Notes: generated by a model not told the origin, from the sequence alone. Positions 70 to 19,494 are shown, numbered from the stretch's first letter. The stretch: DNA of 20,766 nt from a virus (IMGVR_UViG_2600254997_000022), one strand, 5' to 3'. Numbers and translations: made by a program.

Positions 70-89
70 AACTGTGTTTATATACAGTT
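70..89 (-). promoter_or_regulatory. LexA (SOS) box of the leftward gene
   Basis: Perfect CTGT-N8-ACAG core at 72-87 (ctgtgtttatatacag). The reverse strand reads AACTGTATATAAACACAGTT, 19/20 to the dinD SOS box as I remember it (AACTGTATATAAATACAGTT). It lies just upstream of the truncated ORF. Confidence 0.75.
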
Positions 90-213: not shown

Positions 214-720
214 TGAAGGCTGAAAAGTAAGAATTGGCGTTACGAGTTGAATCTGTTTGTAGAGTGTTGGCTTCAATGCCTCATTTTGGCTGGTTTCTTT
301 ATAATGCTGTTTTTGATTATGTACACCCTTATGTACACGGTTTTTTTGGGTGCTTTGGTCAGAAGCCATTGTCTACATCCCTCACGATCGAGGTGTGTAA
401 TCATGTTCAGGCTTGTTGTCCTGCGCGCGCGTATTGCTCGTGAAATTGCTGTACCCAATAGTGATGTCCGAAAAAACCTCCGTTCTCACATGAAACAGCC
501 ATGTGCAACTGGTAACTGAATAGACTGGTAGACCGTTCGTTCAGTAAATACCTGATATTTTCGCCAACGAGAAATTGCGTTGGCTGGCAGAGTGCAAATT
601 TGCACGATGACCTAACCCATTGATTTTTCGAAAACCTGCAATGCAGGAAGCCGGATAACACCATTTTTATAGCTCCGATCCCTTCAAAGTGAGGGGTAAT
701 TTGCCAAAACAGAGAGAGCA

Positions 721-1843: not shown

Positions 1844-2890
1844 TTAGCTTTAATATCGAGTGGTGGATAGTCCATGGACAAGCTGATGGGCGCACTCGAC
1901 GAAAACGATGCGCCAGGCGGACTGTGTCGCTCATAAACCGGGAGTTGGCCAGAGGACTTAGTTGTCCTTTGCAATTCTGCAGGTTCGCACGTGAAAGTAG
2001 CCAAAACCCTGCGAACCTGAGTGCAAACCTGCAACTGCGAACCACTGAGGTGGCCTCTCATAGCTGGTGGTCATACTGGATATTAATCAGGCCTGCCACA
2101 ACCATAACAATCCATAACAGGCGCATCGCACTAACAATTACTAATAGGTCCGCTCGCAACACTAATTTTGACTAAGCCTGAACGCAATGCTCAGAAAGAA
2201 CGAAGAATGGAATGAATCGTACCATCATGTTGCTCCATGATTTTTACGTTCAAGACAGTTGCTTAATCTCGCCTCGCAATTCAGCCCCCTTGCCGCGATC
2301 TTGCCGTTATCGAGAAGTCTTTCTCCTTTCGGTTAATGCTATCGGTCTTCATATTACCAGCAGCATACGCCATCCGATTATTTCGATGCTACGCGCGCGT
2401 ACTTGTCGCAAAATACCAGGCAAAGGCCAGATTCAGAACGTCGTGATAACCACCAGCACAACATGAGAGGTCATGTAACGCTATTTATCACACCAGATAT
2501 ATGTGATTGGTGTACCCGCATAAAACATCGTCATAGCGCGTCCTGTGCGCATATAAGCCGATAATCAACACATCACCATCACTCTGTCTTATGTAGAGAA
2601 CAGTTTTATGGTACTCCCCTCCATTGTGTGCGTACTGGTCGGACGCAGTTGCAAAACTTTTTGCAACTGATAACCCTCGCGCGCGTACTTGTCTCGACAT
2701 TGGTGTTTTGCTGTGGCAGTGATATCAGAAAAATCTTCCTGTTTCACATAAAGCGGATATGCGCGTACTGTAACGGCCCCATCAACTGGGAGCGGATTTG
2801 AAATCCCGCCCCGAATGTGTAGGCAATGTCACTTAACGTTTGTCGCATACCTTCCAGAAAAAGCGATTCATGAATAATAGGGGCATGAAT

Positions 2891-2913: not shown

Positions 2914-3612
2914 TTAATTTGGTGCTTTAGGGTCAACATTAAAAGTTATATCACCTTCTGTATTTTTCCCGGCATAGCTAGCGGCTATTCTCGCCAACCC
3001 TTTGTAATCAGCAATTCCATCAGACTGTTGCGAGACGACTGAGCTACCAACTTTCCATAACATATTAATCTGCCTATTATTGAGATAAGCCTTGGCATCA
3101 AACGACTGGAGTATCACCCCTGCGCCGTAGAACGTGTCCGTCACAGTTGTGTTATACGCGCCAGTAATTCCATAAGTAGGCGTATAAACTGTTGTTGCCG
3201 TTCCAGTGGTATTAGCTGTACCGTAGCCACCACCATAACTATTGAACGTGGTGTTCGAGTTTCCGTACGTTGTTGCTGAGCTCACACCAGTTTGCCCGTA
3301 TATTGGGATGGTTACATTACGAGTATTTGAAATGGCCCCGCTTCTCAAAAAGTTCAAGAGAATTACCTGGTCAGCCAATTTTTCATCTTTAACTTGTGTA
3401 TATCCTTGGCTTGATAAACTGGCGGCTACTACCGTAGCTATTTGAGTGTATTCAATCTGTTTGGTGTTCCAAAGTTCTTGGCTTGCGGGGATGATCAAGA
3501 ACTTCTTACCGACAGATTGCCCGGAGGATAAAGCATTGACCGTTACTAACGGTTTTTGTACGCATCCAGCCAATAATGACAGGGATAATATTAAAAGAAG
3601 ATTTTTAATCAT
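2914..3612 (-). CDS. Lipoprotein of unknown function (232 aa), moron-like
   Basis: Signal peptide MIKNLLLILSLSLLAG|C with an L-A-G-C lipobox and Val at +2. AGGTGA RBS. The central region is G/T/N/Y-rich and low in complexity. The gene looks AT-richer than its neighbours by eye and is flanked by its own candidate promoter and a hairpin. Confidence 0.85.
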   Translation of the reverse strand: MIKNLLLILSLSLLAGCVQKPLVTVNALSSGQSVGKKFLIIPASQELWNTKQIEYTQIATVVAASLSSQGYTQVKDEKLADQVILLNFLRSGAISNTRNVTIPIYGQTGVSSATTYGNSNTTFNSYGGGYGTANTTGTATTVYTPTYGITGAYNTTVTDTFYGAGVILQSFDAKAYLNNRQINMLWKVGSSVVSQQSDGIADYKGLARIAASYAGKNTEGDITFNVDPKAPN

Positions 3613-3762
3613 GATAATCTCACCTAAGAATTGCGTGGTTATAAATTATCATCACTGTAAGCGAATGTAAGCCACAGGCTCGTAATGTGATATGGAATTT
3701 TTATAGTTGGCTCAATATCAGTATGCCGTCCTTGGCTATTATGGTTTTGTTAGTTAGAGCGT

Positions 3763-4716
3763 CTATTCCCATTCGCTAACATCTTTCATGCCACTGAGGG
3801 TAGCTACAATCCCGGCCCTTGTCAGTTTCACGAATTCTTCAGCCCCAACGGCATCACGAATTGCTTTCATGGCAATTTTATTGGCCGAAAATCGTTTCTC
3901 TGCTGCGGCGATCGCTGCTGGTGATGCCCCTGCGCGCACTGCTTTTGTAGCTTCCTGAACGGCTTTCTCTATCGCATATCGACCACTTCTTGTCGCCCCA
4001 ATCTTAGCCACAGTATTTCTCAGTGCGCCACCAGCAACCAAACCACTAATCGAACCAATTACACCACCGCCAAAGCCTCCAGCGATCGCACCTGACTGTT
4101 GAACTCCGTTCATGATCACACCGACGATCTTTGGAAGGCCTGAATCGAGCGTTTTGAGAGCCTCAGTTGTTCTTCCCGTGCGCTCTACGTATCGCTGCGG
4201 TCTGGTGCTGGCTTTAGCGAGTACACCGAACTCTTTCATCATTCTACCGAGATCTGGCACATGACGACTGATGGCGTTTACATTCTGCTGGGTCATGAGC
4301 TTGGCAAAATACTGGATACCAGACTCTTCACCGATTCCTCCCTTCTCTCCCTGCGCCACAGCATGCTGAAGAATAGATGCTATTGCTGGTTGGCGTTCTG
4401 CTTCCGGCAGCGCGGAGATAAGGCGGTGAAAAGCTCCCGTTCCAGTGTTTGCGGATGCCTTAAGCGTATCGGCACCTTTTCTTACCATAGCGTCTGATGC
4501 GAGATCTCGACCAAAAAACAGATTCGGCATTTTGTTTGGCGATAATGTAACTTTTAGAGAGATCGTTAGCTTTCTGCCATTCTGTGAGGAAGTTTCCTTT
4601 TTCAGCCATGATGCGCATGTCATCAGTGATAGCTCTGCGCATTTCTCCGGCAATCCGGGCGGCATTGGCCTTACCTGCCCGGGTGTTTGCTTGTTCAGCA
4701 TCAGCAAACTTAGCAC
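3763..4716 (-). pseudogene. C-terminal fragment of the large ejection/internal-virion protein, in a shifted frame
   Basis: It overlaps the 4460-5818 ORF by 257 nt in another frame. Protein-like sequence begins only around KMPNLFFGRDLASDAMVRKG. Contains a glycine-zipper segment, GAIAGGFGGGVIGSISGLVAGGAL. Confidence 0.6.
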
Positions 4717-5918
4717 GCCATGCCTTCATCCCGTCGAAGGTTATGCCGCCACCTTGGTTGTTGGCAGCCTGAAACTGTTTCATCTCCGGGCTGAGTGGAA
4801 CATTGGCTGCTTTTTCTGCTTGGACGACAGCCATCCCATTACTCATTTTCATCCTTTCGCGTGGCATCGTGCTTCGCAGTTCTGCCCATGCCATATTCTC
4901 TGCTGTTTTCATATCACTGAGGCTCGCGATGATGCGCTCTTTAATTGCTGCGCTTTTTTCTGATGCGCTTCCAGACTCAGCACCGAAATCAGACAACTGC
5001 TTATTCAACTTTGAGGATATTTCATTGAAGGCCGTAAGGTGAGCATCCTGAACATTCCCAGGAGTTGATGCCAGAACACCTTCTGCTTGGGCAATTCCAC
5101 GACTACCTGAGCGCATTCCGGGCGTCAGGGTGTTGATATTAATACCAGTGATTTTCGCCGCCTTAGCGACATCATCTCTGACGTTTGATGCCTGCGATGC
5201 GATATGCTCTCGGCCTACGGCAGAACGCGCTGCTTTCGATACATCATTGGCGGTTTCCAGAGTATTTGCTGCCCCTAACACATGGCCTGATTGATTTGTA
5301 TTACTCCGCAATACATCTCGCATTACGTCACTGGCTGTCTGTCCGCTCTTTATTAAAGCGCGTGCTCCTAGCGATCCTGCTAGGCCAATACCTGTCTCTT
5401 TTGCTAGGTCTTCTGGGCTGATCTGCCCGTTCTTTTGGGCGTTCACCAATGTACCTGGCAGGTTTTCTGCCAACATACTAGCCACCTTTGTGGCCGCACG
5501 TTCAGCACGTGGAGCGTTGGCAACGGAAGAAGCTGTGGTAGCTGCCTTTCCTGCACCTAATCCTGTAATAAGGTAAGGTGCTAGCTGCTCACCAGCCTGC
5601 GCGTATGGATCTGTAGGTTGGTCTACTGGGCGAAAGACAGGTGATATGGGCGTGTATGTGCCATCACCCACACCAAGCTTCTGAGCTGCCCATGCTCCGG
5701 CTGATTGCGCCGCATTGACTACCCCCACGCCTGCGTCCATTACATCAAACGGTATATTAGCAATCCCTCTGGCCATCTGCTCTGGCGCAGCTTTCAGTCC
5801 TGGCGAAAGATATTCCATCTCAGGATTAAGGTTAGACTTGGCTATTTGCTGCTGCGGTTCCCCGGCATTTTCATCGGCGAGAAACTGAGCTCTTTTCTGC
5901 TCCCATGAACTGGCTGTT
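4460..5918 (-). pseudogene. Middle fragment of the large ejection/internal-virion protein
   Basis: The 452-aa ORF (4460-5818) stays open upstream to the IS629 junction at 5918 (TASSWEQKRAQFLADENAGEPQQQIAKSNLNPE-MEYLS). This frame joins the 7230-7804 fragment once the IS and one GTT copy are removed. Confidence 0.7.
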
Positions 5919-5972
5919 TGAACCGCCCCGGGAATCCTGGAGACTAAACTCCCTGAGAAAGAGGTAAACAGG

Positions 5973-6299
5973 ATGACTAAAAATACTCGTTTTTCCCCCG
6001 AAGTCCGTCAGAGGGCGATTCGTATGGTTCTGGAAAGTCAGGGCGAATATGACTCACAGTGGGCGGCAATTTGTTCCATTGCCCCAAAGATTGGCTGTAC
6101 ACCGGAGACTCTGCGTGTCTGGGTACGCCAGCATGAGCGGGATACCGGAGGCGGTGATGGCGGGCTCACCACCGCTGAACGTCAGCGTCTGAAAGAGCTG
6201 GAACGTGAAAATCGTGAACTGCGCCGCAGTAACGATATCCTTCGCCAGGCTTCCGCTTATTTTGCGAAGGCGGAGTTCGACCGCCTCTGGAAAAAGTGA
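5973..6299 (+). CDS. IS629 OrfA (108 aa, HTH)
   Basis: ORF track. The stop overlaps the orfB ATG (TGATG), and GGAAAAAG just upstream sits where IS3-family -1 frameshifting occurs. Confidence 0.92.
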
Positions 6300-7187
6300 T
6301 GCCACTGCTGGATAAGCTGCGTAAGCTGTACGGGGTCGGACCGGTATGCAGTGAACTACATATTGCCCCGTCAACGTATTACCACTGTCAGCAACAGCGA
6401 CATCATCCTGATAAACGCAGTGCCCGTGCGCAGCGCGATGACTGGCTGAAGAAAGAGATACTGCGCGTATACGATGGGAATCATCAGGTATACGGTGTGC
6501 GTAAAGTCTGGAGTCAGTTGTTACGGGAAGGAATCAGGGTAGCCAGATGTACAGTGGCGCGCCTCATGGCGGTTATGGGACTTGCCGGTGTTCTCCGGGG
6601 TAAAAAGGTCCGTACGACCATCAGCCGGAAAGCCGTTGCCGCAGGCGACCGCGTAAACCGTCAGTTCGTGGCAGAACGACCTGACCAGCTGTGGGTGGCT
6701 GATTTTACTTACGTCAGCACATGGCAGGGCTTCGTCTATGTGGCGTTCATCATTGATGTGTTTGCCGGATACATTGTGGGGTGGCGGGTCTCGATCGTCC
6801 ATGGAGACGACATTCGTGCTGGATGCACTGGAGCAGGCGTTATGGGCCCGTCGACCGTCCGGCACGGTCCATCACAGTGATAAAGGTTCTCAGTATGTAT
6901 CGCTGGCCTACACACAGCGGCTTAAGGAAGCCGGATTACTGGCATCAACAGGAAGTACAGGCGACTCGTATGACAACGCGATGGCGGAGAGCATCAATGG
7001 TCTTTACAAAGCGGAGGTAATACACCGTAAGAGCTGGAAAAACCGTGCAGAAGTGGAACTGGCCACACTCACGTGGGTGGACTGGTATAACAATCGACGA
7101 TTGCTGGAAAGGCTGGGCCATACTCCTCCGGCAGAAGCAGAAAAAGCTTATTATGCTTCCATCGGAAACGATGATCTGGCAGCCTGA
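6296..7187 (+). pseudogene. IS629 OrfB transposase (DDE), split by a frameshift
   Basis: Two overlapping ORFs (6296-6880 and 6738-7187) each carry transposase sequence: ...GYIVGWRVS in one frame, then SSMETTFVLDALEQALW... in the next. The switch is near 6790-6800 (gtctcgAtcgtcc). As I recall, intact IS629 OrfB is a single ~296-aa ORF. Confidence 0.75.
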
Positions 7188-7229
7188 GTTCACAGATAAA
7201 ACACTCTCCAGGAAACCCGGGGCGGTTCA

Positions 7230-7804
7230 GTTGGTAGTCCTGCTTCTATGTTCTTAAATTGCTGACGTTTTGCTTCCCATGCAGAAATATCTCCCACCTG
7301 AGAGATTTCTTTATCAAGCTCTGAGTAGTCAGGCTGCTGAAGATTGCGATGTTGACTGGTTTGTGCAAACTGCAAGATTTCACTGTCATCAGGGATTATT
7401 CCGGCATCTGCAAATTTACTTACGTAATTAGCCGTTTCATCTGGCAGTGTAGATTTACCGTTTCTGACGGCATTAATACGAGCATAGCCAGAATTATACC
7501 CAGCCAATGCCATACCAATATCACCAAATCGCTTCATTCCTTTATTGAGATGGTTTGCTGCGATATCCATTTGCTTTTCAAATGGCAGTGAGCGCGGATC
7601 AGTTCCACGATAACCAGCATCACTCATTACTGAGGGCATCAGTTGAGCAAATCCTCTAGCTCCTTTCGGTGACTCGGCACTTCCGTTACCACTAGATTCA
7701 TTGCCAACTAATGTTTCCATCGTCCCTGATGGGAAACCATATTTTTCATCGAGATGACGGGAATAGGCTTTCTGTTTTTCTGTCAGTTGTGCCATCATTG
7801 CCAT
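7230..7804 (-). pseudogene. N-terminal fragment of the large ejection/internal-virion protein: SLT lytic transglycosylase domain
   Basis: Family-1 lytic transglycosylase motifs: catalytic E-S (GNESSGN), GARGFAQLMP, and AGYNSGY. The annotated 204-aa ORF (7190-7804) ends with 13 residues (from the junction codon) read from the IS629 end (..TEPPRVSWRVFYL). Confidence 0.85.
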
Positions 7805-9114
7805 CCCTTAAGTTTTGCCTGATAGTAACTTTCCGGCAGATAGCCATGTGCGGTCACATAATCCTTAACCAGTGAAGGATCCTGCAACAGCATTTTGGTA
7901 TCAGTTTCTTCGTCCTTTGATTTGGTTACAGGAATACCGAGCCCGGCAATCTGTCGTTTCTGCATTCGAATAATTACGTCCTGCGCTTTATTCAACTCTC
8001 GCAAAAATGCCTCATTGCTGGTTGCTGACTTAATGCCATTTTGAGATTGCATAAGGGCAGCCCTTTCCCCTTCGGTTGGGTTAGAGCCAAAAGTCCCTTT
8101 GAGGCTAGGCAGAATAACCTTTAGGTTGTATTCATCAGCTTTGGCGCGTAGGCTTCGTGTGTCTTCTGCTACATCAGGAAGGAATCCAAACCCCAGCGTC
8201 AGGGGGTTATAGTTCTGCGAGCGGGTAACGGCCGAAGGATGTTTCCCTACAATTCCCGCCAGTTCATGACCCACTTCAAGCGCAGAGTTCAAGGAGTCGA
8301 TGTTACCTGCAACAGTATTAATTTTATCGTTCATCTTCTCCACTTTCGCCTGCTGTACTTTGCTCAGTTCAGCATTGAGCTTGTCTCTCTCGATGTCATT
8401 TTGAGCACGTCCAAGTCGTGCTTTCAGAACCATTTCTCTCGTGCGTAGTTGGTTATCGGATAGGACTTTGAACTGCTCCATATCGAGACGCCGATTACCC
8501 AGTTCCGCATTAACCTGAGCATTATATGCAGATGTATCTGCGTTCTGCTGTGCAATGCTCTGCCCTTGCTGCTTCTCTTGAACACTAAAGTAACTATTTG
8601 GATCAGCATGGAGGTGGATGAGGTCAGTGATTCTGTTGAATTCCTGTGGGTCATTCTGCCAAGACTGATAAACCTCTTCAGCAGGAAGACCAAATCGCTG
8701 TAATACTGGATTTGCCTGCTGAATGGCCTTCTGCATGGTCAGTGGATCTCCAGTTTGTGACGCAAGACGCAGATTCATGGCAGCGTCAGCGGTCTGTCGA
8801 TTTTGCTCAGCATCAATGAATCCCATCTGTTTTTGAGAATCAGCCATAAACTGGGGATACTGGGCCATTAACTTCTGCACGCCAACACGATCATTATTAG
8901 CTACCGCACTACCCAACCGTGCCTGATATTCTTTTAGCTGCTGGGAAATTTGCGCCTGCTGATTAATCTCAGCAACGCCTCTTAGCCCCTGTAGCGCCAT
9001 TAAACCTACGTTTGGCTGCTGCTGATACTGCACAGGCTGAGGAACGGAAGAACGAGGAGCATTATCATTTTGCGGTGCCATGCTAGGCAGCCCGCCAAGT
9101 TGCCATGTCGCCAT
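7795..9114 (-). CDS. Ejection / DNA-transfer-like protein (439 aa), in the P22 gp20 position
   Basis: Q/N/A-rich with predicted coiled-coil character. The start overlaps the upstream stop (TAATG) and the stop overlaps the downstream start by 10 nt. Size and position parallel P22 gp20 (~470 aa). Homology was not verified. Confidence 0.6.
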   Translation of the reverse strand: MATWQLGGLPSMAPQNDNAPRSSVPQPVQYQQQPNVGLMALQGLRGVAEINQQAQISQQLKEYQARLGSAVANNDRVGVQKLMAQYPQFMADSQKQMGFIDAEQNRQTADAAMNLRLASQTGDPLTMQKAIQQANPVLQRFGLPAEEVYQSWQNDPQEFNRITDLIHLHADPNSYFSVQEKQQGQSIAQQNADTSAYNAQVNAELGNRRLDMEQFKVLSDNQLRTREMVLKARLGRAQNDIERDKLNAELSKVQQAKVEKMNDKINTVAGNIDSLNSALEVGHELAGIVGKHPSAVTRSQNYNPLTLGFGFLPDVAEDTRSLRAKADEYNLKVILPSLKGTFGSNPTEGERAALMQSQNGIKSATSNEAFLRELNKAQDVIIRMQKRQIAGLGIPVTKSKDEETDTKMLLQDPSLVKDYVTAHGYLPESYYQAKLKGWQ

Positions 9115-9791
9115 TAGAATCCAAGCCCCCCAACAAGACCAATAAGCCCACCACCAATAGCCCCGGCGACATTACCTATACCCGGAACAACGGAACCAAG
9201 TTGCGCACCCGCTAAAGCGCCTGATGCCGCCCCACCAATACCACGCGCAAGACTGGATGGCTGCTGCGCCTGACCTGCACGAATAGCGCCAAGCCCCTGC
9301 AAGAGTTGTCCGGTATTATTGGCGTAGTTTTGCCCTGCTGTTGCCTGCCCTGATGCCGCATTCATCCCGACATTTAGCAGGTTTCCATAATTTTGCATTT
9401 GCCCACTGAGCCAATTGTTATAAAGCATGGGCGCAATGGAAGATAACTGGTTACTGGTAGCTGTTGAGCCAAGCCCCCCGGTAGCTTCTGCTGAGACAAG
9501 GTTCTGATAACGGGCCTGATCTGCCTGTGTTTTATATAAACCAGAACCAAAGAAATCATTCGCGGCTTTATTCTGCCCTTCCAGAGTCATCAGTCCTTGT
9601 AGTTGTTGTAAAGCAGGCAATCCGACTTCTGCATACGGCTTGAGATTATTCATCACCGTATTCCACTGCTCGCGCTGCAAATCAATTGCCTGCTGCTGGG
9701 CCTTCGCCTGAGCTTTAGAGGCACCACCATCACCGCCTTTTTCGTATACGGCACGATTGAGATATTTATGAGCTATATGGGTAATTAACAT
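9114..9791 (-). CDS. Ejection / DNA-transfer-like protein (225 aa), in the P22 gp7 position
   Basis: Q/G/A/N-rich, with a C-terminal glycine-zipper hydrophobic tail (GIGGAASGALAGAQLGSVVPGIGNVAGAIGGGLIGLVGGLGF). Size parallels P22 gp7 (~229 aa). Translationally coupled on both sides. Confidence 0.6.
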   Translation of the reverse strand: MLITHIAHKYLNRAVYEKGGDGGASKAQAKAQQQAIDLQREQWNTVMNNLKPYAEVGLPALQQLQGLMTLEGQNKAANDFFGSGLYKTQADQARYQNLVSAEATGGLGSTATSNQLSSIAPMLYNNWLSGQMQNYGNLLNVGMNAASGQATAGQNYANNTGQLLQGLGAIRAGQAQQPSSLARGIGGAASGALAGAQLGSVVPGIGNVAGAIGGGLIGLVGGLGF

Positions 9792-10246
9792 TCGCTGAAT
9801 TCCTTATATTGTTGCCGAGTTAACTGATAAAGCATTACGCCGACGGGTTTACCACATCTGATATAAGCATCATCAAGGTGACCAACACGGGTAGCGCCAA
9901 GCAAACGGATAATTGCCCGTCCGTATTTGGTGGTGTCAGGAACCATGGTAATGCTGTTAAGGAATGGTGAGTTTTCGAGAAGCCATTTGCAGAATAATCG
10001 ATGCCCTTGCAGTGCATATTCACCACGGAATCCGGGGTCGTACACCGCATGGCATTCAACAATGTTATGCCAGAAGTTACGCACTTCATGAACGCCAGCC
10101 AGCACCAATCCTTCGTAGATACCGAGATATACCGCATCAGGCTTGATGTAGTACGTGTGCCCCGGCTCAACAATATTTTCGGTATTGCCAGGCTCGTTAA
10201 GAAAGGCCTGTAATCGCACAGGGTTATCAATAAATTTTAGTTCCAT
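9785..10246 (-). CDS. 153-aa protein in the P22 gp14 position, with a weak GNAT-like motif
   Basis: ORF track. First large gene of the coupled block. DPGFRGEYALQGHRLFCKWLLE loosely resembles acetyltransferase motif A. Size parallels P22 gp14 (~160 aa). Function is uncertain. Confidence 0.5.
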   Translation of the reverse strand: MELKFIDNPVRLQAFLNEPGNTENIVEPGHTYYIKPDAVYLGIYEGLVLAGVHEVRNFWHNIVECHAVYDPGFRGEYALQGHRLFCKWLLENSPFLNSITMVPDTTKYGRAIIRLLGATRVGHLDDAYIRCGKPVGVMLYQLTRQQYKEFSEC

Positions 10247-10262
10247 GCGATGCCATCCATTT

Positions 10263-10424
10263 TCACATACAGCCTGCCAGCGCCTTATCTATTAACCCTC
10301 GTGCAATTTCATGCAGAGTTGGCGCTACTCCAATTCCTGATTTTTTACGCTGCTCTTCCTGAATTTTCTTTATCGCTTCCATTTGCTTCTCACTTATCAA
10401 TACCGGCTTTACTGAAATAGCCAT
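10263..10424 (-). CDS. Ribbon-helix-helix (Arc/CopG-like) small DNA-binding protein, 53 aa; below the ORF-track cutoff
   Basis: The reverse strand reads MAISVKPVLISEKQMEAIKKIQEEQRKKSGIGVAPTLHEIARGLIDKALAGCM. AGGGGG RBS lies 5 nt upstream. The beta-strand/helix/helix spacing is typical of RHH proteins. The stop is 17 nt before the next ATG. Confidence 0.65.
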   Translation of the reverse strand: MAISVKPVLISEKQMEAIKKIQEEQRKKSGIGVAPTLHEIARGLIDKALAGCM

Positions 10425-10439
10425 AACGCCCCCTTAGAA

Positions 10440-10463
10440 CTGTATAAAACAACAGTTATTATA
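10440..10463 (-). promoter_or_regulatory. TATAAT -10 element followed immediately by a perfect LexA box
   Basis: The reverse strand reads ATGAAT-N17-TATAAT-AA-CTGTTGTTTTATACAG. The CTGT-N8-ACAG core is at 10440-10455 and the -10 at 10458-10463. The box covers the predicted transcription start, 15 nt upstream of the RHH start codon. Confidence 0.7.
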
Positions 10464-10517
10464 GTTTCATAAATCGCAACATTCATCATCGTAATTGCAA
10501 AATATGAAACATATAGC

Positions 10518-10552
10518 ACAAAAAAATGCCACCGCTCAGTAGCTGGTGGCAT
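10518..10552 (-). terminator. Strong intrinsic terminator for leftward transcription from the primase/ori side
   Basis: Stem atgccacc (10526-10533) / ggtggcat (10545-10552) with an 11-nt loop. On the reverse strand it is followed by T7. It separates the replication module from the SOS-boxed operon. Confidence 0.8.
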
Positions 10553-10872
10553 CGTTCTGTGTGTCAGGTTTTGACAGGTTTTTTATGGACTCTAAAAACT
10601 ATATTTATGGTGTCGCATTACTCTTCACGGCAGGCGCTTTTCAGTTCTGCCCTTGCTTCTGGCTCCATTGGTAATTTGATTCGCGATCAGCTATGCGGAT
10701 GGTTTGCTGAACAGGCATAACAACTTCTCAAGGGCTGTTTTCTGAACTACGAAAATTTCGTAGTGCTCACTTTCAAAAACGTCACGCCCTTGTACACAGG
10801 ATTTTACGAAAGTCTCGTAAAACACTCTCTGATGCCAGCCAGGTGTTGTGCGCATCAATTCAGTCACATTGT

Positions 10873-10974
10873 GTTGGTTCAAAATACCGTGTTGTTGGTT
10901 CAGTGTTGGTTCAATAAAAAGAATAAAATCCTTATAAAACAATACCCTTTATAAATTGAACCAACTGAACCAAC
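10873..10974. repeat. Iteron cluster B (ori/crr-like), immediately downstream of the primase-helicase gene
   Basis: GTTGGTTCA at 10873, 10894 and 10905 (21- and 11-bp spacing). An AT-rich spacer follows, then TGAACCAAC in tandem at 10957 and 10966. The reverse complement aligns with cluster A, including the spacer (atttataaagggtattgtttt vs atttgtaaagagtattgtttt). Confidence 0.8.
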
Positions 10975-10999
10975 ACCTTTTCTACGCACATGAAGAAGC

Positions 11000-13759
11000 T
11001 CATTCTTCAGATGAGTTGTAATCTCCTGGCTGGTAATTGAGTACATAAACGTTTATTTGTCGTCCCTGAATACGTGGTGATTTTCTTTGGTATCCACGAC
11101 CGCTGTTTGGTGGGGTTAGCATCCCGGCTTTTTTCAACACTTCAGCAAACTGTTTTGCGTTGAAACCACATGCGATCTCCTTTTCAAATGTGGCCGGGAA
11201 TGTGTAGAAAATCATTGGGCTTTCGTCATGTTCTCCACGCTGACGGTATCCGGCTAAATCTTTGATGGGCAAATCTGCCGGGCTGTATGGAAATGGTGCA
11301 AAACGGCTAAGCCCATAGGCATTAAGAAATGCCTCCGTTTGTTCAATAATCTGCTGATGTTCTTTGTTACCTGTGCCGAACTCGCGCAACCATGCGTTAT
11401 AGCTGTGCTGTATCGCATCACGGCATGTCTGAGCATCCCAGCCTGTTACAACCTCGCCTAACAGCAATGCGGCCTCCAGAATGGCAAATCGCGCGGCTAC
11501 ACGGTGAACCTGCTCACCATAATCGGATGGGATCAGACTTCTCCATCTGCTTTCGCGGTCACGAACAGTTTTAATTGCCTGTTGCTGGTGGTCTGCCAGC
11601 CATTTAATCCACTCACGCCCGGCTGCGCCGTGGTGATGCTGGTAAGCGTCTTTCAGTGCGTCTGCGTGCTGTTTTCCGTTCTGGTAATCGTGAAAGCGTA
11701 CTGCTTTACTCAACGGAATATTCAGCAGTCGCACCAGTTGCCCGGCTTTGGTTTTTCGCCCGGAAGTAGCGATAAATGTTTCTAAATCCATTTCTCCGGT
11801 GCTGATTGCCACTGTACGCCAGCGTTTTAGATCCCGGTTTCCACCATCTTTAGCGCCTTGCAGTTTCCCTACACCGTTAAATAACGCATAGGCAGACTGT
11901 GAAACACTGACAGGATCAGCGCCCTGACCAACTTCATCAAGCGGCATTAGTCCGTCATTGTGGGCGGCAGCTTCATTTGCCAGCCCCAGCGCGGTTCCGT
12001 ACCACGTCAGCCGCAGTAAATCAGGGTTGCCGTATAAGCTGCTCGCCACGTTTGCCGTGGTGGTCTTACCTGCGCTCGACTGCTCATAGAAATGAATGCC
12101 GAACCCGTCAGCGCCCACCAGCCCAATCAATGGCGCTGCCAGTGCTGCGCCGATCCCGGTCATCATTGAATAGTTACCAAAGGCCAGACGCGCCACGTTA
12201 TCACGCCAGCTTTTCGCGCTCCCTGAGACGGTATATCCGGCTGCGGCTGAGCTTCTCCCGCTGAACAGCACAGGATTTTCAGGTGTTCCGATGATTTCCC
12301 CATCAGGCATGATGTACGCTCCGCATTGCCAGCCAGTGGCATGAGCAACACGCCACAATTCACGAGAGCCACTGCGTTGTAGCCAGTCTGCCAGTATTGC
12401 TCTGAGGCTGCTTTTGGTCGTGACATTTACCCCACCAGCTTTAAGTGTGCGCCATCCTTCACGTTCACCAATATCAGCCAGTGGAATGGCAGCGGTTGTC
12501 GGCGTTTCAGAACCAAACGACAGCCAGCGAAGAATGAGATACTGGTCTTTATCGTCTCTGCCAGTACCGATAACGCTTAACGGAGAACATAACCAGCTTT
12601 CGTTATTGATGATTTCTCCACTCTGGCTGTCAGCTCTCGGAGATACCCAATAAATACCATCCTCGCGGCTTTCTATTCTTGGTTTCAGTGGGTCGGTATC
12701 CATAACCTTAAAATCGCTTCCCTCAATGGTCTGTGGCTCCTGTTTCACGCCATTACCCTGTGGTTGGTACATTGACTTATTGAACGCTTCTGTGGCGCAT
12801 TTAATGCCGTGTTTTTGGTGGTAATCATTCCAGTCTGCTTTGTGATCTGTCGGGGGTAATGCCACCCATCCAGAAACAGATAAAGCTGCTTTTTCTGCTG
12901 CTCTTCTCCCCGTGTTTTGTCTTCCTTCGCTGTGGTCGTTATCCGCAGCAATGATGATTTGTGCTGAAGGAAATTTATCCCGCAGTACCTGGGCGACATA
13001 TAACAGGTTCCCGGCATCAATCGCCGCCACTGTCAGCGCCTCTGGGCGAATTAAATGGGCAGATAATGCCGTTGCCAGCCCTTCTGCGATTAAGATGCTC
13101 TGTGTTGTTTCTGGTGCGTTTATGGCGTGATATGCCCCTCGCTTTGCTGAACCTGTCAGGAGTCTTTTTTCACCATGTGAGGTAATAGTCTGTGCTGCTG
13201 TGACTGCGCCGGATTTATCCACCAGCGCCAGCAACAGAGATCCATCGGGCAACACGGGGAATGTAAAATCACCTACCCCTTTCGCAACCAGATAATCAGA
13301 TTTGCCGTTTACAGCCTTTCTGCGCATGTCATCAAACTGACGGGAAAACGTATCCCGTCTTTGTTGTTCGTCCTTCTCTGCCCTTTTCAGGCGCTCCTGT
13401 TCGCGTCGCTGGCGCTTGGTTTCCAGTTGTTCCCGTTTCTGGCTGGTGGCTTCTGGTGTTTCCGTTGTCCGGTAATCAATACCCAGAACATCAGCGGCAA
13501 GAAGCGCCGCCTCTGTTGTGTCGCAGTTATTTACGCGTTTAATTAAATCCAGCCCATCACCAGCGCCGCACTGATTACAGATGAAGCTACCGCGCCCGTT
13601 GTCATCGAACCGGAATCGATCTTTTCCCCCACATGCAGGGCAGGGAGCATGACGGCGCGGAGAGTCAGGGACATTTATGTTCAGGCAGCCCAGCACATGA
13701 GGCCAGTTGTTTTCAGACGCACTGATAACCTGACGGATAAGATCAATGTTTCGCATCAC
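11000..13759 (-). CDS. Primase-helicase, P4 alpha-like (919 aa)
   Basis: N-terminal zinc ribbon CPACGGKDRFRF..FICNQCG. TOPRIM-like acidic motifs (ILIAEGLATALS, IIIAADNDHSE). Walker A in YEQSSAGKTTTANV. The long C-terminal region fits an origin-binding domain. Confidence 0.9.
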   Translation of the reverse strand: MMRNIDLIRQVISASENNWPHVLGCLNINVPDSPRRHAPCPACGGKDRFRFDDNGRGSFICNQCGAGDGLDLIKRVNNCDTTEAALLAADVLGIDYRTTETPEATSQKREQLETKRQRREQERLKRAEKDEQQRRDTFSRQFDDMRRKAVNGKSDYLVAKGVGDFTFPVLPDGSLLLALVDKSGAVTAAQTITSHGEKRLLTGSAKRGAYHAINAPETTQSILIAEGLATALSAHLIRPEALTVAAIDAGNLLYVAQVLRDKFPSAQIIIAADNDHSEGRQNTGRRAAEKAALSVSGWVALPPTDHKADWNDYHQKHGIKCATEAFNKSMYQPQGNGVKQEPQTIEGSDFKVMDTDPLKPRIESREDGIYWVSPRADSQSGEIINNESWLCSPLSVIGTGRDDKDQYLILRWLSFGSETPTTAAIPLADIGEREGWRTLKAGGVNVTTKSSLRAILADWLQRSGSRELWRVAHATGWQCGAYIMPDGEIIGTPENPVLFSGRSSAAAGYTVSGSAKSWRDNVARLAFGNYSMMTGIGAALAAPLIGLVGADGFGIHFYEQSSAGKTTTANVASSLYGNPDLLRLTWYGTALGLANEAAAHNDGLMPLDEVGQGADPVSVSQSAYALFNGVGKLQGAKDGGNRDLKRWRTVAISTGEMDLETFIATSGRKTKAGQLVRLLNIPLSKAVRFHDYQNGKQHADALKDAYQHHHGAAGREWIKWLADHQQQAIKTVRDRESRWRSLIPSDYGEQVHRVAARFAILEAALLLGEVVTGWDAQTCRDAIQHSYNAWLREFGTGNKEHQQIIEQTEAFLNAYGLSRFAPFPYSPADLPIKDLAGYRQRGEHDESPMIFYTFPATFEKEIACGFNAKQFAEVLKKAGMLTPPNSGRGYQRKSPRIQGRQINVYVLNYQPGDYNSSEE

Positions 13760-16143: not shown

Positions 16144-16261
16144 GGGAATTCTTCCCACCACCGGAGCTGCGAAACTCGCTGGTGGTGGACTGAACAGAGT
16201 TCGCAGTACCGGCGTACAAGGAAACCGGCCAGCCTTTCGGCTGCCCTGTCCAGCCCACCAT
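16144..16261 (-). ncRNA. Candidate c4 / CI-type antisense (immunity) RNA or cis leader
   Basis: Dense stems on the reverse strand: CAGCC-GAAA-GGCTG, GTAC-GCCG-GTAC, CCACCACC...GGTGGTGG, CTGCGAA...TTCGCAG. Two segments are complementary to the contiguous RBS region GTACAAGGAGGCTGCC of the downstream ORF: GGCAGCC (+ coordinates 16239-16245) and TCCTTGTAC (+ coordinates 16214-16222). Confidence 0.5.
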
Positions 16262-16281
16262 AATTTTACAAGCGACGCGGA

Positions 16282-16788
16282 TTATAACCACATCACCGAA
16301 AAAAGTGTGAGTCTGGCTAACGGCACAGAAAAAGACGCTCGGCGCGTCCATGTGTCGCCTCGTACATTTCCGGGCTTGCGAAACCCGGCACCCGTTTTAT
16401 GAGGTGCCTTATAACCATAAACCGTGTTGCCGCATAACGGCAAGCTCTTTTTTATGGACTCCGAAAACTCACTATTGGAAGAACCAGAAGCACAGTACAT
16501 CGCGCTCATTTCGTTAACGTCACGCGCGTAGACGAATGTTTTTGTGGAGTCACTACACGAGCAGAACAGGTGATCTACGACCAGAAATTCTCTGGCGCAG
16601 CCGCTGACCTTCTCAACGCTAACACCATCGACCGTAATTTCTGACATAGTTAAGGCATCCGCTCCTACCACCAGCAAATGATAAACTTTGCTTGTATCTG
16701 CTATATTAATGTCTGACTTTGCTGTCATATTGCTGGATTTTGGCGACATACCAGCCAGTGAAAATATCTTCTTCTGGGCGGTTAGCAT
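16282..16788 (-). CDS. Hypothetical protein (168 aa)
   Basis: GGAGG RBS 9 nt upstream. The ATG overlaps the upstream stop (ATGCTAA). The C-terminal ~40 aa look low-complexity, so the true end is uncertain. Confidence 0.5.
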
Positions 16789-17802: not shown

Positions 17803-18234
17803 TTAGGCGGCGTTAAACGCGTCCGGGTAGAGTTTCAGAATGTCGGCAATTTCCTGCTGAGAAAGTCCGTTGTGATCATTTATGTTCGCAAGATGGTTAA
17901 CATGAGTGATCACTTTCAGAACATCACCACGGCAGGAGAAACGGTAGCGAAGGTGTGTTCCGATACCATCAGGATTCTTTTCGTCGATACGCTCCAGAGT
18001 GATTCCAAGCTGGCGTTCTAACTCTGTTGCATAGTTACGACCAGATGACAGACGGCAGTAGCGAAGAATGTCATTTTCTGTCCATCCCTCTATACCAGTA
18101 CGCAGCATATAGACTCTGGCACGATGCTTTTTCGGTGTGCGCTTTGGTGCTTGAAGGGATTTTGTAAGGGGCGTAACATCAGATACGCGAATATCTGAAT
18201 TAGCCGCCTGTAATGGGCGGTTTTTCTTTTCCAT
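17803..18234 (-). CDS. Hypothetical protein (143 aa)
   Basis: ORF track. The start overlaps the alpA stop (TGATG). Basic N-terminus (KRTPKKHRAR). No motif recognised. Confidence 0.6.
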   Translation of the reverse strand: MEKKNRPLQAANSDIRVSDVTPLTKSLQAPKRTPKKHRARVYMLRTGIEGWTENDILRYCRLSSGRNYATELERQLGITLERIDEKNPDGIGTHLRYRFSCRGDVLKVITHVNHLANINDHNGLSQQEIADILKLYPDAFNAA

Positions 18235-18437
18235 CAGGCCACCTTCCCGCGGCGTTCTGCCAGCCAGTTGTGAATCTCAACCGCATCAAACGCAGTTATT
18301 TTTTCTCCCAGCTTTACCGGACGTGGTAGTGAACCGTTTCTTACTTTACGGTCGATGGTGGATACACTAACGCCCAGCAATTCAGCCAGGCGAAAGCGTC
18401 TGATATAGCCTTTTGTAGGGATAGTGTCGATGTTCAT
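18234..18437 (-). CDS. alpA: AlpA-family transcriptional regulator / excisionase-type HTH (67 aa)
   Basis: YIRRFRLAELLGVSVSTIDRKVRNGSLPRPVKLGEKITAFDAVEIHNWL matches the AlpA/HTH_17 pattern. Typical position near a P4-family integrase. Confidence 0.85.
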   Translation of the reverse strand: MNIDTIPTKGYIRRFRLAELLGVSVSTIDRKVRNGSLPRPVKLGEKITAFDAVEIHNWLAERRGKVA

Positions 18438-18504
18438 GATTCCCGTAACCTCTTAGCGATAGTTGTTGCTTCGTTACGAGAAATCTAGCTGTATAGATAT
18501 ACAA

Positions 18505-18532
18505 TGAAAAGGTACTGTAATTTTGCAGTACC
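18505..18532 (-). terminator. Intrinsic terminator after the int-orf316 unit
   Basis: Stem ggtactg (18511-18517) / cagtacc (18526-18532) with an 8-nt loop. On the reverse strand it is followed by TTTTC. Lies 12 nt past the stop at 18544. Confidence 0.7.
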
Positions 18533-18543
18533 TCTATAGTAAG

Positions 18544-19494
18544 TTAACTATCCACTTTGCCATTTGCCGCAGATCGTAGATGTTTAAGAATTACATCTTC
18601 ATTAGTTATCATAAGTGGTGGAACTTCGTCTAAATGACGAACAAGACAGTCACGCCACTTCTCAGGGCTTATTTCTTTCCTTTCTCCCCTGCATTCATTT
18701 GGATACTTACTAAGTATATAAATTGCAGATTTTAATAGTTTCTCCCTATTGACTGCGTACCGTTCGGCACGTTTATTAACTTTTAGCGTATTTATATCAT
18801 TGGATAACTTGTTTGCGGATGGTTTGTGCATGGGTCTGTCATAAATATATTTTCCTCCATTTATAAGAAGATTGTATTCATAGTCAGTTATATACATTTT
18901 GTTTCGGCTTATTTCATACCAGCCGTCAATATAAAAAGCTCCGATTTCATAATTATTCGATTTGCTAAACTCGTCACATCTCGGAGGCATCAGTTCGCAT
19001 ACAGAGATCTCCCAATCATCCCATTCTGATAGCTCCCGCTCATCGTTATCTATGAACGCAGGCGGAATTGCTAATAGACCGCTCCATCTTTCGATATCTC
19101 TTTCATCCTTCCCAACATTATATCGCTCTATAACTGAGAAATGTTCTGATTTGTATGAAAACCTCATAAAATACATATAGTTATCGCTATTTTTATAATC
19201 AGGTGATGATAAGCCATATGATTCGAGATTATCTGCCTTATTGCTCAGATCAAGGAGATAATTCTCATGTGCTGCTTTTGTATCTATATGAAAAATACTA
19301 TCTGTTTCAACTTTAAGTAATTCTGGCTCGGCATCTTCATTTTTTGGGTAATGGTAAAACAATTCAATAGGTGGAATTTTTATACATATTTCTAAAACCC
19401 CAATTGCTGCATAGTGTATTAAATCGGATACTTCACATCCGGCCAGTTTGGCTGCTTTATCCAAAGAATAATATTTATGCGCAGGTAATTTCAT
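18544..19494 (-). CDS. AT-rich orphan protein (316 aa) with an HTH-like N-terminus; function unknown
   Basis: GAGGAAAT RBS. The start is 18 nt after the int stop with no terminator between them. YSLDKAAKLAGCEVSDLIHYAAIGVLE looks like an HTH. No catalytic motif recognised. Markedly AT-richer by eye than int and alpA. Confidence 0.8.
   Translation of the reverse strand: MKLPAHKYYSLDKAAKLAGCEVSDLIHYAAIGVLEICIKIPPIELFYHYPKNEDAEPELLKVETDSIFHIDTKAAHENYLLDLSNKADNLESYGLSSPDYKNSDNYMYFMRFSYKSEHFSVIERYNVGKDERDIERWSGLLAIPPAFIDNDERELSEWDDWEISVCELMPPRCDEFSKSNNYEIGAFYIDGWYEISRNKMYITDYEYNLLINGGKYIYDRPMHKPSANKLSNDINTLKVNKRAERYAVNREKLLKSAIYILSKYPNECRGERKEISPEKWRDCLVRHLDEVPPLMITNEDVILKHLRSAANGKVDS

Follow-up and report, generated by a model that had tools for sequence, protein, structure and literature searches.

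A cassette of P22-like injection proteins behind a predicted LexA box in an EcCIMP1-type PICI is probably aimed at helper virions

Main finding

The region between positions 2,914 and 10,463 of the viral sequence IMGVR_UViG_2600254997_000022 (20,766 nucleotides, the whole of which we refer to as the window) is probably a late operon directed at virions, belonging to an EcCIMP1-type phage-inducible chromosomal island (PICI) with P22-like podoviruses as helpers, and judging by its genes and promoter it would supply injection proteins to helper capsids in time with the SOS response. The island is an EcCIMP1-type PICI and hence of a kind already described; new here are the prevalence of the module, the purifying selection on it, its non-prophage origin, its distinct gp20/gp16 alleles and the modules that its leader gene heads in other genera.

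Gene content of the island and its cassette

The island is placed between dinD and yicC in E. coli and carries genes for an integrase, AlpA, AntA, Ash, a TOPRIM/DUF927 primase with an iteron origin, and PerC, with the integrase, the AlpA regulator and the primase with its adjacent origin all in the same orientation (Table 1). In an intact copy (L001), a direct repeat at 8317 and 27633 (12 nt exact, ~20 of 22 by eye) brackets an island of ~19.3 kb, and its 12-mer is located at position 316 of the window. The islands contain no capsid, tail or lysis genes, and tblastn with the TerS, TerL, portal, scaffold, coat, gp4, gp10, needle and tailspike proteins of the P22-like phage Kapi1 gave no match in them, in agreement with the sequence-only reading of a satellite-like island lacking coat, portal, terminase and tail genes.

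By sequence, the 153-, 225- and 439-aa proteins and the largest protein are clear homologues of P22 gp14, gp7, gp20 and gp16. The first three each exceed the curated cut-off of a Pfam family: DUF2824 (PF11039, 4.8e-60, 202 bits) for the 153-aa protein, P22_gp7 (PF25688, 1.9e-72, 244 bits) for the 225-aa protein and Inj_translocase (PF16928, 1.8e-22, 81 bits) for the 439-aa protein, whilst the SLT domain (PF01464, 1.1e-12) spans residues 15-117 of the gp16-like protein. The cassette proteins match PHROGs 651, 598, 917/2534 and 770, the last at 3.5e-120 with the intact gp16-like protein of L001. Comparison of coordinates with P22 showed the same gene order, 14-7-20-16, with overlapping junctions, here of 7, 1 and 4 nt, which makes translational coupling plausible. 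GxxxG glycine-rich runs are found at the C-terminus of the 225-aa protein and in the large gp16-like protein. The sequence-only reading had described a 53-aa gene followed by four coupled genes of 153, 225, 439 and ~910 aa (906 aa in intact copies) whose proteins and order mirror P22 14-7-20-16, with glycine-zipper segments in the 225-aa and largest proteins and an SLT domain at the start of the latter, and all of this stands. The fusion of SLT to gp16 is not special to satellites, as the P22-like phages Dewey and Huey carry the same fusion.

Relationships to phage proteins differ along the cassette. The gp14-like protein is 82% identical to Kapi1_055 and the gp7-like protein 57% to Kapi1 gp7 and 56% to P22 gp7; the best match of the gp20-like protein among phage records is just 25-28% identical, and the satellite gp20/gp16 alleles share 24-26% identity with those of Kapi1 and are unlike every sequenced phage allele. 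Within the gp20-like proteins the first ~200 residues are conserved or mosaic, and the C-termini are swapped.

As had been claimed, the cassette is inactive in this strain, its gp16 gene having been hit twice: an IS629-type element interrupts it at ~codon 189, the boundary between the SLT and gp16 parts, and a single extra A at 4513 shifts the reading frame. The element carries an ALIL frameshifting pseudoknot, and its own orfB is broken into two reading frames. A lipoprotein gene, possibly a moron, lies 150 nt past gp16; it has a separate promoter-like site, its stop codon is followed by a hairpin, and cassettes of types B, C and D lack it.

Table 1. Features of the window (strand: -, reverse; +, forward;., not stranded)
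Feature	Position	Strand	Remark
Left attachment-site repeat ATTATGTACACC...TATGTACA	316-337	.	Partner beside integrase, outside window
Candidate pac-site mimic, copy 1, GCGACAAGTACGCG	2396-2409	-	Identical to a stretch inside Kapi1 terS
Candidate pac-site mimic, copy 2	2682-2695	-	1 mismatch, unrelated flanks
232-aa lipoprotein (LAGC lipobox)	2914-3612	-	Distant DUF4136 relative
gp16-like DNA-transfer protein, body and C-terminus (intact residues ~190-906)	3763-5918	-	Frameshifted
IS3-family insertion sequence (IS629 type), 1311 bp	5919-7229	+	3-bp target duplication
gp16-like protein, N-terminal SLT lytic transglycosylase domain	7230-7798	-	PF01464
gp20-like ejection protein, 439 aa, type A allele	7795-9114	-	PF16928 Inj_translocase
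gp7-like ejection protein, 225 aa	9114-9791	-	PF25688 P22_gp7
gp14-like protein, 153 aa	9785-10246	-	DUF2824 / phrog_651 head morphogenesis
53-aa leader gene	10263-10424	-	Satellite-specific; RHH fold not demonstrated
LexA (SOS) box CTGTTGTTTTATACAG, predicted	10440-10455	.	Between -10 and Shine-Dalgarno sequence
-10 hexamer TATAAT	10458-10463	-	
Operator-like inverted repeat GTTTCATAAATCGCAA / TTGCAAAATATGAAAC	10464-10510	.	Covers -35 region
Intrinsic terminator closing primase/ori module	10518-10552	-	Hairpin and T-run
Origin-like iterons GTGTTGGTTCA	10871-10976	.	3x direct and 2x inverted, around AT-rich core
Primase-helicase (Zn ribbon, Toprim, DUF927)	11000-13759	-	
AlpA-family regulator	18234-18437	-	
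Tyrosine integrase	19513-20766	-	Runs to window end

Leader gene and promoter

The 53-aa leader protein had been taken for an RHH protein, an assignment that our searches do not support: there was no Pfam or PHROG match, a profile of 23 leader homologues found nothing relevant in the PDB, probabilities in hhalign comparisons with Arc and Mnt were 0.2-0.3%, and Foldseek returned no match. The AF2 monomer (pLDDT 78) has an extended segment at residues 1-11 and helices at 12-29 and 37-52, a predicted topology which would be compatible with RHH and is not specific to it. The leader has no homologue among 50,697 phage records; homologues are present in ~35 satellites of Enterobacterales and on 80 contigs of IMG/VR. 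In other genera the same leader is followed by tape-measure, internal-virion or TerS genes.

The perfect CTGT-N8-ACAG box noted earlier behind TATAAT is one of only two such matches in the window, the other being the dinD SOS box at 72-87, with 0.19 expected by chance. A PWM trained on known E. coli LexA sites gives it 20.8 bits (training median 20.1, range 12.9-26.7; dinD box 24.3). It begins 2 nt past TATAAT and ends 15 nt ahead of the ATG, overlapping the promoter core, and is the sole strong LexA-like site within four intact islands. A box of at least 14 bits is kept in 14 of 15 P22-type modules in IMG/VR, with two different spacer sequences, and the palindrome with different spacers is also present in several tape-measure-type modules. 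By its sequence and score the predicted LexA box is of bona fide quality. The strong terminator said to separate the cassette from the primase/ori module was likewise found, as a hairpin with a T-run.

Some observations on the promoter region count against SOS-timed supply to virions. Many related satellites have CTG-N9-CAG at the same position, one base short of the LexA spacing. There is also no good -35 for the TATAAT at 10458-10463, which a consensus promoter scan did not call as a promoter, and the expected -35 place is occupied by an inverted repeat of 16 nt (arms 10464-10479 and 10495-10510), where TTTCAT...TTGCAA motifs recur in other genera; the missing -35 and the operator-like repeat together suggest that a second regulator besides LexA is probably needed.

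Relationship to EcCIMP1 and other known systems

The sequence-only reading knew of no described satellite with its own ejection proteins, which no longer holds, as EcCIMP1 (PMC11773190, 2025) carries the same cassette. EcCIMP1 is a PICI of E. coli MP1, mapped experimentally at 19,963 bp (Pick, Stadel & Raivio, ISME J 2025, PMC11773190), which is excised only when the P22-like phage vB_EcoP_Kapi1 is present and is transferred by it; its cassette genes were termed "DNA transfer/DUF2824" packaging candidates, with ejection function and LexA control left unaddressed (PMC11773190). The two islands share the gene order from AlpA to the lipoprotein and the same LexA box in the ori/terminator/promoter region. 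The 53-aa protein, the gp7-like protein and the lipoprotein of EcCIMP1 are 100% identical to those of the window, the gp20-like protein 99.3%, the gp14-like protein 97.4% and the primase 99%, whilst its gp16-like protein shares 99.7% identity with that of the intact copy L001. However, the integrases are only 28% identical and the att site of EcCIMP1 is a tRNA-Thr by proA rather than dinD/yicC, and the IS629 and the gp16 frameshift belong to the window copy only.

The P22 block 14-7-20-16 (also Sf6 gp11-13 and HK620) has the same four families, order and coupled junctions, and the gp20 and gp16 of the cassette are as divergent as those of true P22-like phages are among themselves. Unlike that block, the cassette lies outside a virion gene cluster, has neither needle gene 26 upstream nor sieA/tailspike downstream, and has its own SOS-boxed promoter and satellite-specific leader gene. 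A precedent for its predicted control is SaPI operon I (packaging) of staphylococcal pathogenicity islands, which is reported to be LexA-controlled (Ubeda et al. 2007, PMID 17581119). Operon I likewise lies downstream of the replication module, is aimed at helper virion assembly, and is LexA-repressed and timed with helper SOS induction, but it encodes TerS, capsid-size and interference proteins rather than injection proteins and has no sequence relationship to the cassette, for which LexA control is a prediction. The classical Gram-negative PICIs EcCICFT073 and EcCIEDL933 and the P4-like satellites share the int-alpA-primase/ori backbone and tRNA or fixed att sites, and their size is, as here, a simple fraction of the helper genome. 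Those satellites carry Rpp/TerS or capsid-redirection genes (Sid, Psu) and have lambdoid or P2 helpers, whereas the EcCIMP1-type family has a TOPRIM/DUF927 primase, C4/isrK RNA, Ash, AntA and a leader-headed injection-protein module.

Proposed function

In the reading that we favour, DNA damage would cause LexA cleavage as RecA* induces the helper prophage, and the operon would be derepressed. The satellite ejection proteins would then enter helper procapsids through their conserved N-terminal parts and a gp14 closely similar to the helper's, and at infection would be ejected to form the trans-envelope DNA channel for particles from that cell. Satellite DNA would probably fill a full-size ~40-kb headful as a dimer of the ~19-20-kb island, and the helper TerS may recognise the pac-like motifs downstream of the cassette. 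That motif is expected 0.09 times by chance in the window; in IMG/VR the pac-like 18-mer lies inside Kapi1/HK620-type terS in 63 of 80 loci and on ~8 satellite-like contigs. The benefit to the satellite most likely lies in controlling entry: gp20 and gp16, matched to each other and divergent at their C-termini, could allow particles into cells where helper-type injection is blocked, for instance helper lysogens with SieA-like exclusion. This last step is the least certain. Foreign E-proteins with 21-26% identity to those of P22 are built into P22 virions and work there, gp16 and gp20 have to match each other, gp7 can be exchanged, and SieA-escape mutations are located in the C-terminal regions of gp16 and gp20 (PMC10883804). 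E-proteins enter procapsids by their N-terminal parts, via scaffold (PMC8402733). The favoured reading fits several features of the islands: those of types C and D carry just the gp20+gp16 pair, gp20 keeps a conserved or mosaic N-terminal part with swapped C-termini, the satellite alleles differ from those of sequenced phages, and the pac-like motif is shared with Kapi1/HK620-type terS.

Some observations weigh against supply to helper virions. E-proteins enter procapsids ahead of the DNA, so they could not be targeted to satellite-filled particles and the benefit would be shared with the helper. The Kapi1 titre did not change with EcCIMP1, transduction was so low that no benefit was visible, and a Kapi1-like prophage is present in just 2 of 21 EcCIMP1 strains (PMC11773190). 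The Kapi1 annotation includes no obvious SieA homologue.

An unlikely alternative is that satellite gp20 and gp16 mix with those of the helper in procapsids as a dominant-negative limit on it. P22 with Sf6 gp16 alone or Sf6 gp20 alone yields non-functional virions (PMC10883804), and as mismatched gp16-gp20 pairs fail, mixing would give non-infectious helper virions; the low identity between satellite and Kapi1 alleles fits this, and interference with the helper is common among satellites (PMC11773190). However, Kapi1 titres from induced lysogens are unaltered by EcCIMP1 (PMC11773190), poisoned particles would hold satellite DNA equally often and so harm the satellite itself, and type A and B islands also encode gp7 and gp14, which makes up a full functional set and not a lone poison subunit.

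We consider it similarly improbable that the proteins defend the resident cell by jamming or decoying, from the host envelope, the channel through which incoming P22-like phages inject. The superinfection immunity that Kapi1 lysogens gain from EcCIMP1 would then be accounted for, and a lipoprotein gene does follow the type A cassette, but the immunity phenotype also requires the Kapi1 prophage (PMC11773190) and its factor could instead be the lipoprotein or other cargo. Moreover, a LexA-repressed operon would be silent in undamaged cells, just when exclusion is required, and the proteins are without signal peptides, their phage counterparts acting from the virion interior.

Conservation and origin

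Across hundreds of E. coli genomes, and also in Leclercia, the cassette is conserved as an intact unit under purifying selection. Of 5426 complete E. coli genomes, 499 carry the leader and promoter module. The module is known from two att sites and is accompanied by either of two replicases, and its copies are as a rule intact. Comparison of E. coli with Leclercia gives a dN/dS of 0.03-0.08 (dS at least 1), indicating strong purifying selection. That the cassette is an inert leftover, the decaying tail end of a P22-like prophage recombined beside a PICI, has next to no probability: the doubly broken gp16 of the window and the fact that P22-like late operons end with genes 14-7-20-16 would suit such an origin, which the sequence-only reading had put forward for checking, but it is already contradicted by this distribution and selection behind one satellite-specific leader and promoter, by the position of the module within mapped att boundaries, by the absence of needle, portal and coat remnants in the tblastn search and by the absence of the leader gene from phage records.

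A possible wider family of delivery-protein satellites

Supply of injection proteins to helper virions may be part of a broader pattern, which we put forward tentatively. A large enterobacterial satellite family with the shared leader and promoter might carry, as its only virion genes, replacement delivery alleles matched to the helper morphotype, which may re-arm helper particles against exclusion, and its P22-type branch may mimic pac instead of encoding TerS. The delivery modules concerned are P22-type ejection proteins, a chaperone with a tape measure protein, tape-measure/SLT fusions and baseplate hubs, and internal virion proteins of other podoviruses. Superinfection exclusion acts on such proteins, SieA on gp16/gp20 and HK97 gp15 and Ltp on tape measure proteins, and as delivery proteins are the targets of prophage exclusion, satellites may re-arm helper particles, including against helper lysogens. 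If true, satellites and helpers would interact in a way that forms a category of its own and is new, at entry instead of assembly.

The island and its ejection protein cassette

The left end of the window is the promoter of the host gene dinD and the right end is the integrase gene. dinD and yicC flank the island in an intact relative from E. coli 214-4 (L001), in which ~19.3 kb are bracketed by the direct repeat ATTATGTACACC..TATGTACA. Pfam identified an Arm/tyrosine integrase, an AlpA-family regulator, an AntA antirepressor, Ash, a Zn-ribbon/Toprim/DUF927 primase and PerC on the island, and tblastn with TerS, TerL, portal, scaffold, coat, gp4, gp10, needle and tailspike of Kapi1, a P22-like podovirus, gave no match in the window island or its relatives, which bears out the satellite context proposed by the sequence-only reading; a terS gene is absent from the islands. 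A helper-embedded PICI, integrated in a prophage late gene (PMC10111431), is ruled out, the sites being tRNA genes or dinD/yicC with host genes on both sides. C4 antisense RNA and isrK in the ash region, with the Icd-like and AntA genes of relatives, point to a putative P1/P4-type RNA immunity circuit in the satellite. A 316-aa open-reading frame without a Pfam match lies in the 35% GC stretch that separates alpA from the integrase; this slot carries variable cargo, a different gene being present there in L001.

The cassette encodes products of 53, 153, 225, 439 and 906 aa (the last being the size in intact copies) with junctions overlapping by 7, 1 and 4 nt. Pfam and PHROG family matches confirm the proposed homology to P22 gp14, gp7, gp20 and gp16: the 153-aa protein is DUF2824/phrog_651, the P22 gene 14 family, the 225-aa protein matches Pfam P22_gp7 (1.9e-72), the 439-aa protein is Inj_translocase, the gp20 family, and the 906-aa protein combines an SLT domain with phrog_770 "DNA transfer protein" (3.5e-120), the gp16 family. 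RefSeq already carries such names ("phage DNA ejection protein", "DUF2824 family protein" etc.). Identity to Kapi1 is 82% for gp14, 57% for gp7, 26% for gp20 and 24% for gp16; for gp20 and gp16, divergence on this scale is usual among true P22-like phages (PMC10883804). The P22-like phages Dewey and Huey share the SLT-gp16 fusion, with 47% identity across 97% of the protein. A 1311-bp IS629-type element with a 3-bp duplication interrupts the last gene of the window copy at the SLT/gp16 boundary, and the frame of this gene is further shifted by one extra A; this copy of the cassette is defective. The orfB of the element lies in two overlapping frames, so that its transposase also looks frameshifted.

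The 232-aa lipoprotein accompanies the type A cassette (defined below) only, and a homologue search gave nothing on the function of this DUF4136-like protein. Its position after gene 16 matches that of P22 sieA, which makes it a candidate factor behind the superinfection immunity described for EcCIMP1.

Features of the window and of related loci, with coordinates
Feature	Position	Strand	Detail
dinD SOS box AACTGTGTTTATATACAGTT	70-89		24.3 bits; just outside the island's left att repeat
Direct repeat, left copy	316
pac-like motif TTTNGCGACAAGTACGCG	2396-2409 and 2682-2695	minus	Match to Kapi1 terS
232-aa lipoprotein	2914-3612	minus	After gp16, own promoter-like site; distant DUF4136 likeness, weak TraT match (E 0.09)
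Extra A	4513
IS629-type element	5919-7229
orfB frames of the element	6296-6880 and 6738-7187
Leader gene (53 aa)	10263-10424	minus
Cassette SOS box	10440-10455		CTGT-N8-ACAG
TATAAT	10458-10463
16-nt inverted repeat GTTTCATAAATCGCAA / TTGCAAAATATGAAAC	10464-10479 / 10495-10510		Occupies the -35 position
Terminator	10518-10552
Iterons	10871-10976
C4 antisense RNA	16178-16265	minus	Rfam, 81 bits
isrK	16328-16407	minus	Rfam, 57 bits
Segment differing from L001	18478-19519
LexA-like site AGCTGTATAGATATACAATG	18487-18506		18.0 bits
316-aa ORF	18544-19494	minus
Integrase gene	19513-20766	minus	Arm/tyrosine integrase (Pfam)
pac-like motif, L005	18875-18892
pac-like motif, L002	4369, 6123, 6411
ClbS/DfsB gene and ISEc53, L084	13976-16034

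Relation to EcCIMP1

The element is a member of a satellite family published in 2025. EcCIMP1, a 19,963-bp PICI of E. coli MP1, circularises only with Kapi1 present, and its transduction by Kapi1 is alpA- and int-dependent (PMC11773190). The alpA promoter, as published, is responsive to the helper alone. Its region (L002) shares with the window the gene set from AlpA to the lipoprotein, with cassette proteins 97-100% identical, and the same ori-terminator-promoter region, but has another integrase and tRNA-Thr as its site. The earlier statement that no described satellite carries ejection proteins is thus outdated. The authors of EcCIMP1 state that they identified no structural genes, and their paper does not contain the words "ejection", "injection" or "LexA" (PMC11773190). 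We found no functional reading of the cassette or of its SOS box in the searchable literature, in which the only satellites with ejection or tape measure proteins were EcCIMP1, mycobacterial EPIPs and a PLE11 mention; the main text of the MP1 transcriptome paper holds no cassette-level or SOS data, and a preprint of December 2025 describes tape measure proteins as essentially unknown in satellites, save one PLE proposal.

Promoter and SOS box

The description of the cassette as coupled genes behind a perfect LexA box and a TATAAT, insulated by a terminator, proved accurate. The TATAAT lies two bases before the box and a strong Shine-Dalgarno sequence follows it; the window contains two CTGT-N8-ACAG matches where 0.19 would be expected, the other one being the dinD box, which served as internal positive control of the LexA scan. 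On an approximate position weight matrix built from E. coli LexA sites in the literature, the cassette box scores 20.8 bits (training median 20.1, dinD box 24.3, window 99.9th percentile 3.6), and it was the sole strong LexA-like site inside the four intact islands scanned. About 50 nt upstream of alpA the window has a third LexA-like site, AGCTGTATAGATATACAATG, within a segment differing from L001; this site is absent from L001-L004. The terminator and the iterons set the cassette apart from the primase/ori module.

The cassette promoter has no usable -35, which is why a consensus promoter scan left it uncalled. At the position of the inverted repeat, TTTCAT-N3/4-TTGCAA motifs recur across genera. 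With no -35 and the repeat in its place a second regulator is likely; the repeat is likely an operator for the 53-aa protein or an activator, and the promoter probably requires another factor.

A leader gene followed by exchangeable modules

The 53-aa leader protein had been read as a ribbon-helix-helix (RHH) protein, a label that could not be verified. It has no Pfam or PHROG match, its 23-sequence profile has no PDB match, hhalign against P22 Arc and Mnt gave a probability <1%, and the AF2 model has no Foldseek match. The modelled monomer, an extended N-terminus and two helices, is RHH-compatible but non-specific, and these searches give nothing past compatible topology. No homologue of the gene was found among 50,697 phage records, which argues that it is a satellite gene.

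Among primase relatives fetched from about 65 Enterobacterales species, P22-type proteins lie downstream only in Escherichia, Leclercia and one Pectobacterium, and a leader-gene homologue with the conserved promoter architecture is present at about 35 loci. Elsewhere the leader gene is followed by a ~108-aa chaperone-like protein and a tape measure protein of 857-1245 aa, by ~590-aa tape-measure/SLT fusions, by a baseplate hub, by SLT and internal virion proteins akin to those of Pseudomonas podovirus Ab31 and pelagiphages, or by TerS. Non-P22 delivery modules follow the leader homologue at L010, L011, L023, L026, L028, L031, L032, L049 and L056, and also at L008, L017, L018, L021, L024 and L043. 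The genes following the satellite tape measure gene are not tail genes, and none lie next to it, whereas its homologue in a true E. coli siphovirus prophage has tail tube and tip genes around it. The lack of adjoining tail genes and the conserved position behind the leader gene are the two grounds for counting the tape measure gene as part of an island. Most islands adjoin tRNA genes, and in the Lonsdalea island (L017), the sole tape-measure-type island with both att repeats in the fetched 10-kb flanks, these enclose the module.

The leader gene also led to another 80 loci in IMG/VR. Behind it, 15 of these carry P22-type ejection proteins, 10 a chaperone with a tape measure protein, about 20 other delivery-type proteins and 24 TerS alone; the module was unrecognised in 5. 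Because such varied modules follow the leader gene, we read the leader-headed operon as the exchangeable virion-hijack module of this satellite family, with genome-delivery proteins as its commonest cargo. A LexA-grade box, with two different spacer sequences, lies upstream of 14 of the 15 P22-type modules among these loci and of few of the others, many of which have CTG-N9-CAG instead. In many relatives (L008, L010, L011, L018, L023, L028, L031, L032, L064 and L069) the box position, ~30 nt upstream of the leader gene, holds ACTGTATAAATATCAGGAGG. Such a CTG-N9-CAG site keeps a perfect left half-site but has one base too few for LexA spacing, and these sites have either left the SOS regulon or are bound by another protein.

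Distribution, cassette types and selection

About 9% of complete E. coli genomes (499 of 5426) have the leader gene and promoter. Two attachment sites are used, and the accompanying replicase is of one of two unrelated kinds, the DUF927 primase and, in UPEC129 (L084), DUF5906; the injection module therefore moves between satellite backbones. In L084 a ClbS/DfsB gene and ISEc53 stand in place of the promoter and LexA box before the leader gene. Type A cassettes consist of gp14, gp7, gp20, SLT-gp16 and the lipoprotein, type B of gp14, gp7, another gp20 and a 701-aa gp16, and types C and D of gp20 and gp16 alone. When E. coli is compared with the Leclercia adecarboxylata island L036, dN/dS is 0.03-0.08 for every cassette gene with dS at least 1, and the cassette is better conserved than the primase (81-88% vs. 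68% amino acid identity). The satellite alleles stand apart from all sequenced phage alleles, with which type A gp20 shares at most 28% identity, type A gp16 47-52% and types B/C gp16 66%; type D gp20 shares 75% with Kapi1. Over its first ~200 residues gp20 is conserved or mosaically shared (95% between types C and D), and the C-terminal halves are swapped. The possibility that the block is the tail end of a P22-like prophage is countered by its spread over these genomes, its two att sites, its two replicases and its low dN/dS, which argue that it is not a prophage remnant.

A candidate pac mimic

A 14-18-nt sequence, (T)TTTNGCGACAAGTACGCG, lies inside Kapi1 terS and recurs downstream of the cassette, two or three times in each E. 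coli satellite. The satellite copies (also given as GCGACAAGTACGCG) stand in three unrelated flanking contexts, with a chance expectation of 0.09. A search for the 18-mer in 2.9 million IMG/VR contigs returned 86 stretches, of which 80 were classified: 63 lay within a Kapi1/HK620/Sf101-type terS gene (89-100% amino acid identity) and ~8 in satellite-like contigs. P22 has its pac site inside terS, and we therefore regard the motif as a candidate pac-site mimic; if real, it would account for specific packaging of islands that lack terS. The island (19.3-20 kb) is half the length of a P22-like genome (38-43 kb), and a headful would presumably hold a dimer with a little redundancy.

Proposed function and alternatives

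P22 ejection proteins reach procapsids via their N-terminal parts, aided by scaffolding protein (PMC8402733), and P22 can assemble and use the ejection proteins of other P22-like phages despite identities of only 21-26%, a matched gp16-gp20 pair being obligatory and gp7 interchangeable (PMC10883804). Mutations escaping the prophage exclusion protein SieA fall in the C-terminal regions of gp16 and gp20 (PMC10883804); at these positions (gp16 G532/P546; gp20 T338/T341/A348/G350) the satellite alignments, in divergent C-termini, are too poor to read. These findings fit the anatomy of the satellite cassettes, whose smallest module is exactly a matched gp20-gp16 pair with conserved assembly-side N-termini and divergent channel-side C-termini. 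From this we infer that the operon acts through the helper virion. LexA cleavage would derepress the operon at the time of induction of a P22-like helper prophage, the operon's products would be incorporated into helper procapsids, and the satellite ejection proteins would form the DNA channel when those particles infect. SaPI operon I offers a precedent for a LexA-controlled, virion-directed satellite operon (PMID 17581119).

The most likely benefit, though a speculative one, is entry into cells that exclude helper-type injection, favoured because the satellite gains by entering helper lysogens. Prophage exclusion proteins are reported to target tape measure proteins as well as gp16 and gp20. 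Against the proposed mechanism stand the probable need of the promoter for another factor, the unaltered Kapi1 titres with EcCIMP1, the very low transduction of EcCIMP1 and the presence of a Kapi1-like prophage in few EcCIMP1 strains (PMC11773190), and ejection proteins cannot be targeted to satellite-filled heads alone. Mismatched subunits might instead interfere with the helper, which we consider unlikely, and it is equally doubtful that the cassette serves exclusion in the resident cell. That it is an inert remnant is contradicted by the data and highly improbable.

An SOS-timed, satellite-encoded injection apparatus, its extension to helpers of other types and the candidate pac mimic are still new and testable, and directly so as a working pair, Kapi1 and EcCIMP1, exists. 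Known phage satellites act on capsid size, packaging specificity or tail acquisition, and we know of no satellite that provides proteins taking DNA across the recipient's envelope. If satellite proteins are built into helper virions, the satellite, besides the helper, would decide which cells the particles enter, which, if true, bears on superinfection exclusion, the spread of island-borne PerC-type virulence regulators and the host range of transducing particles.
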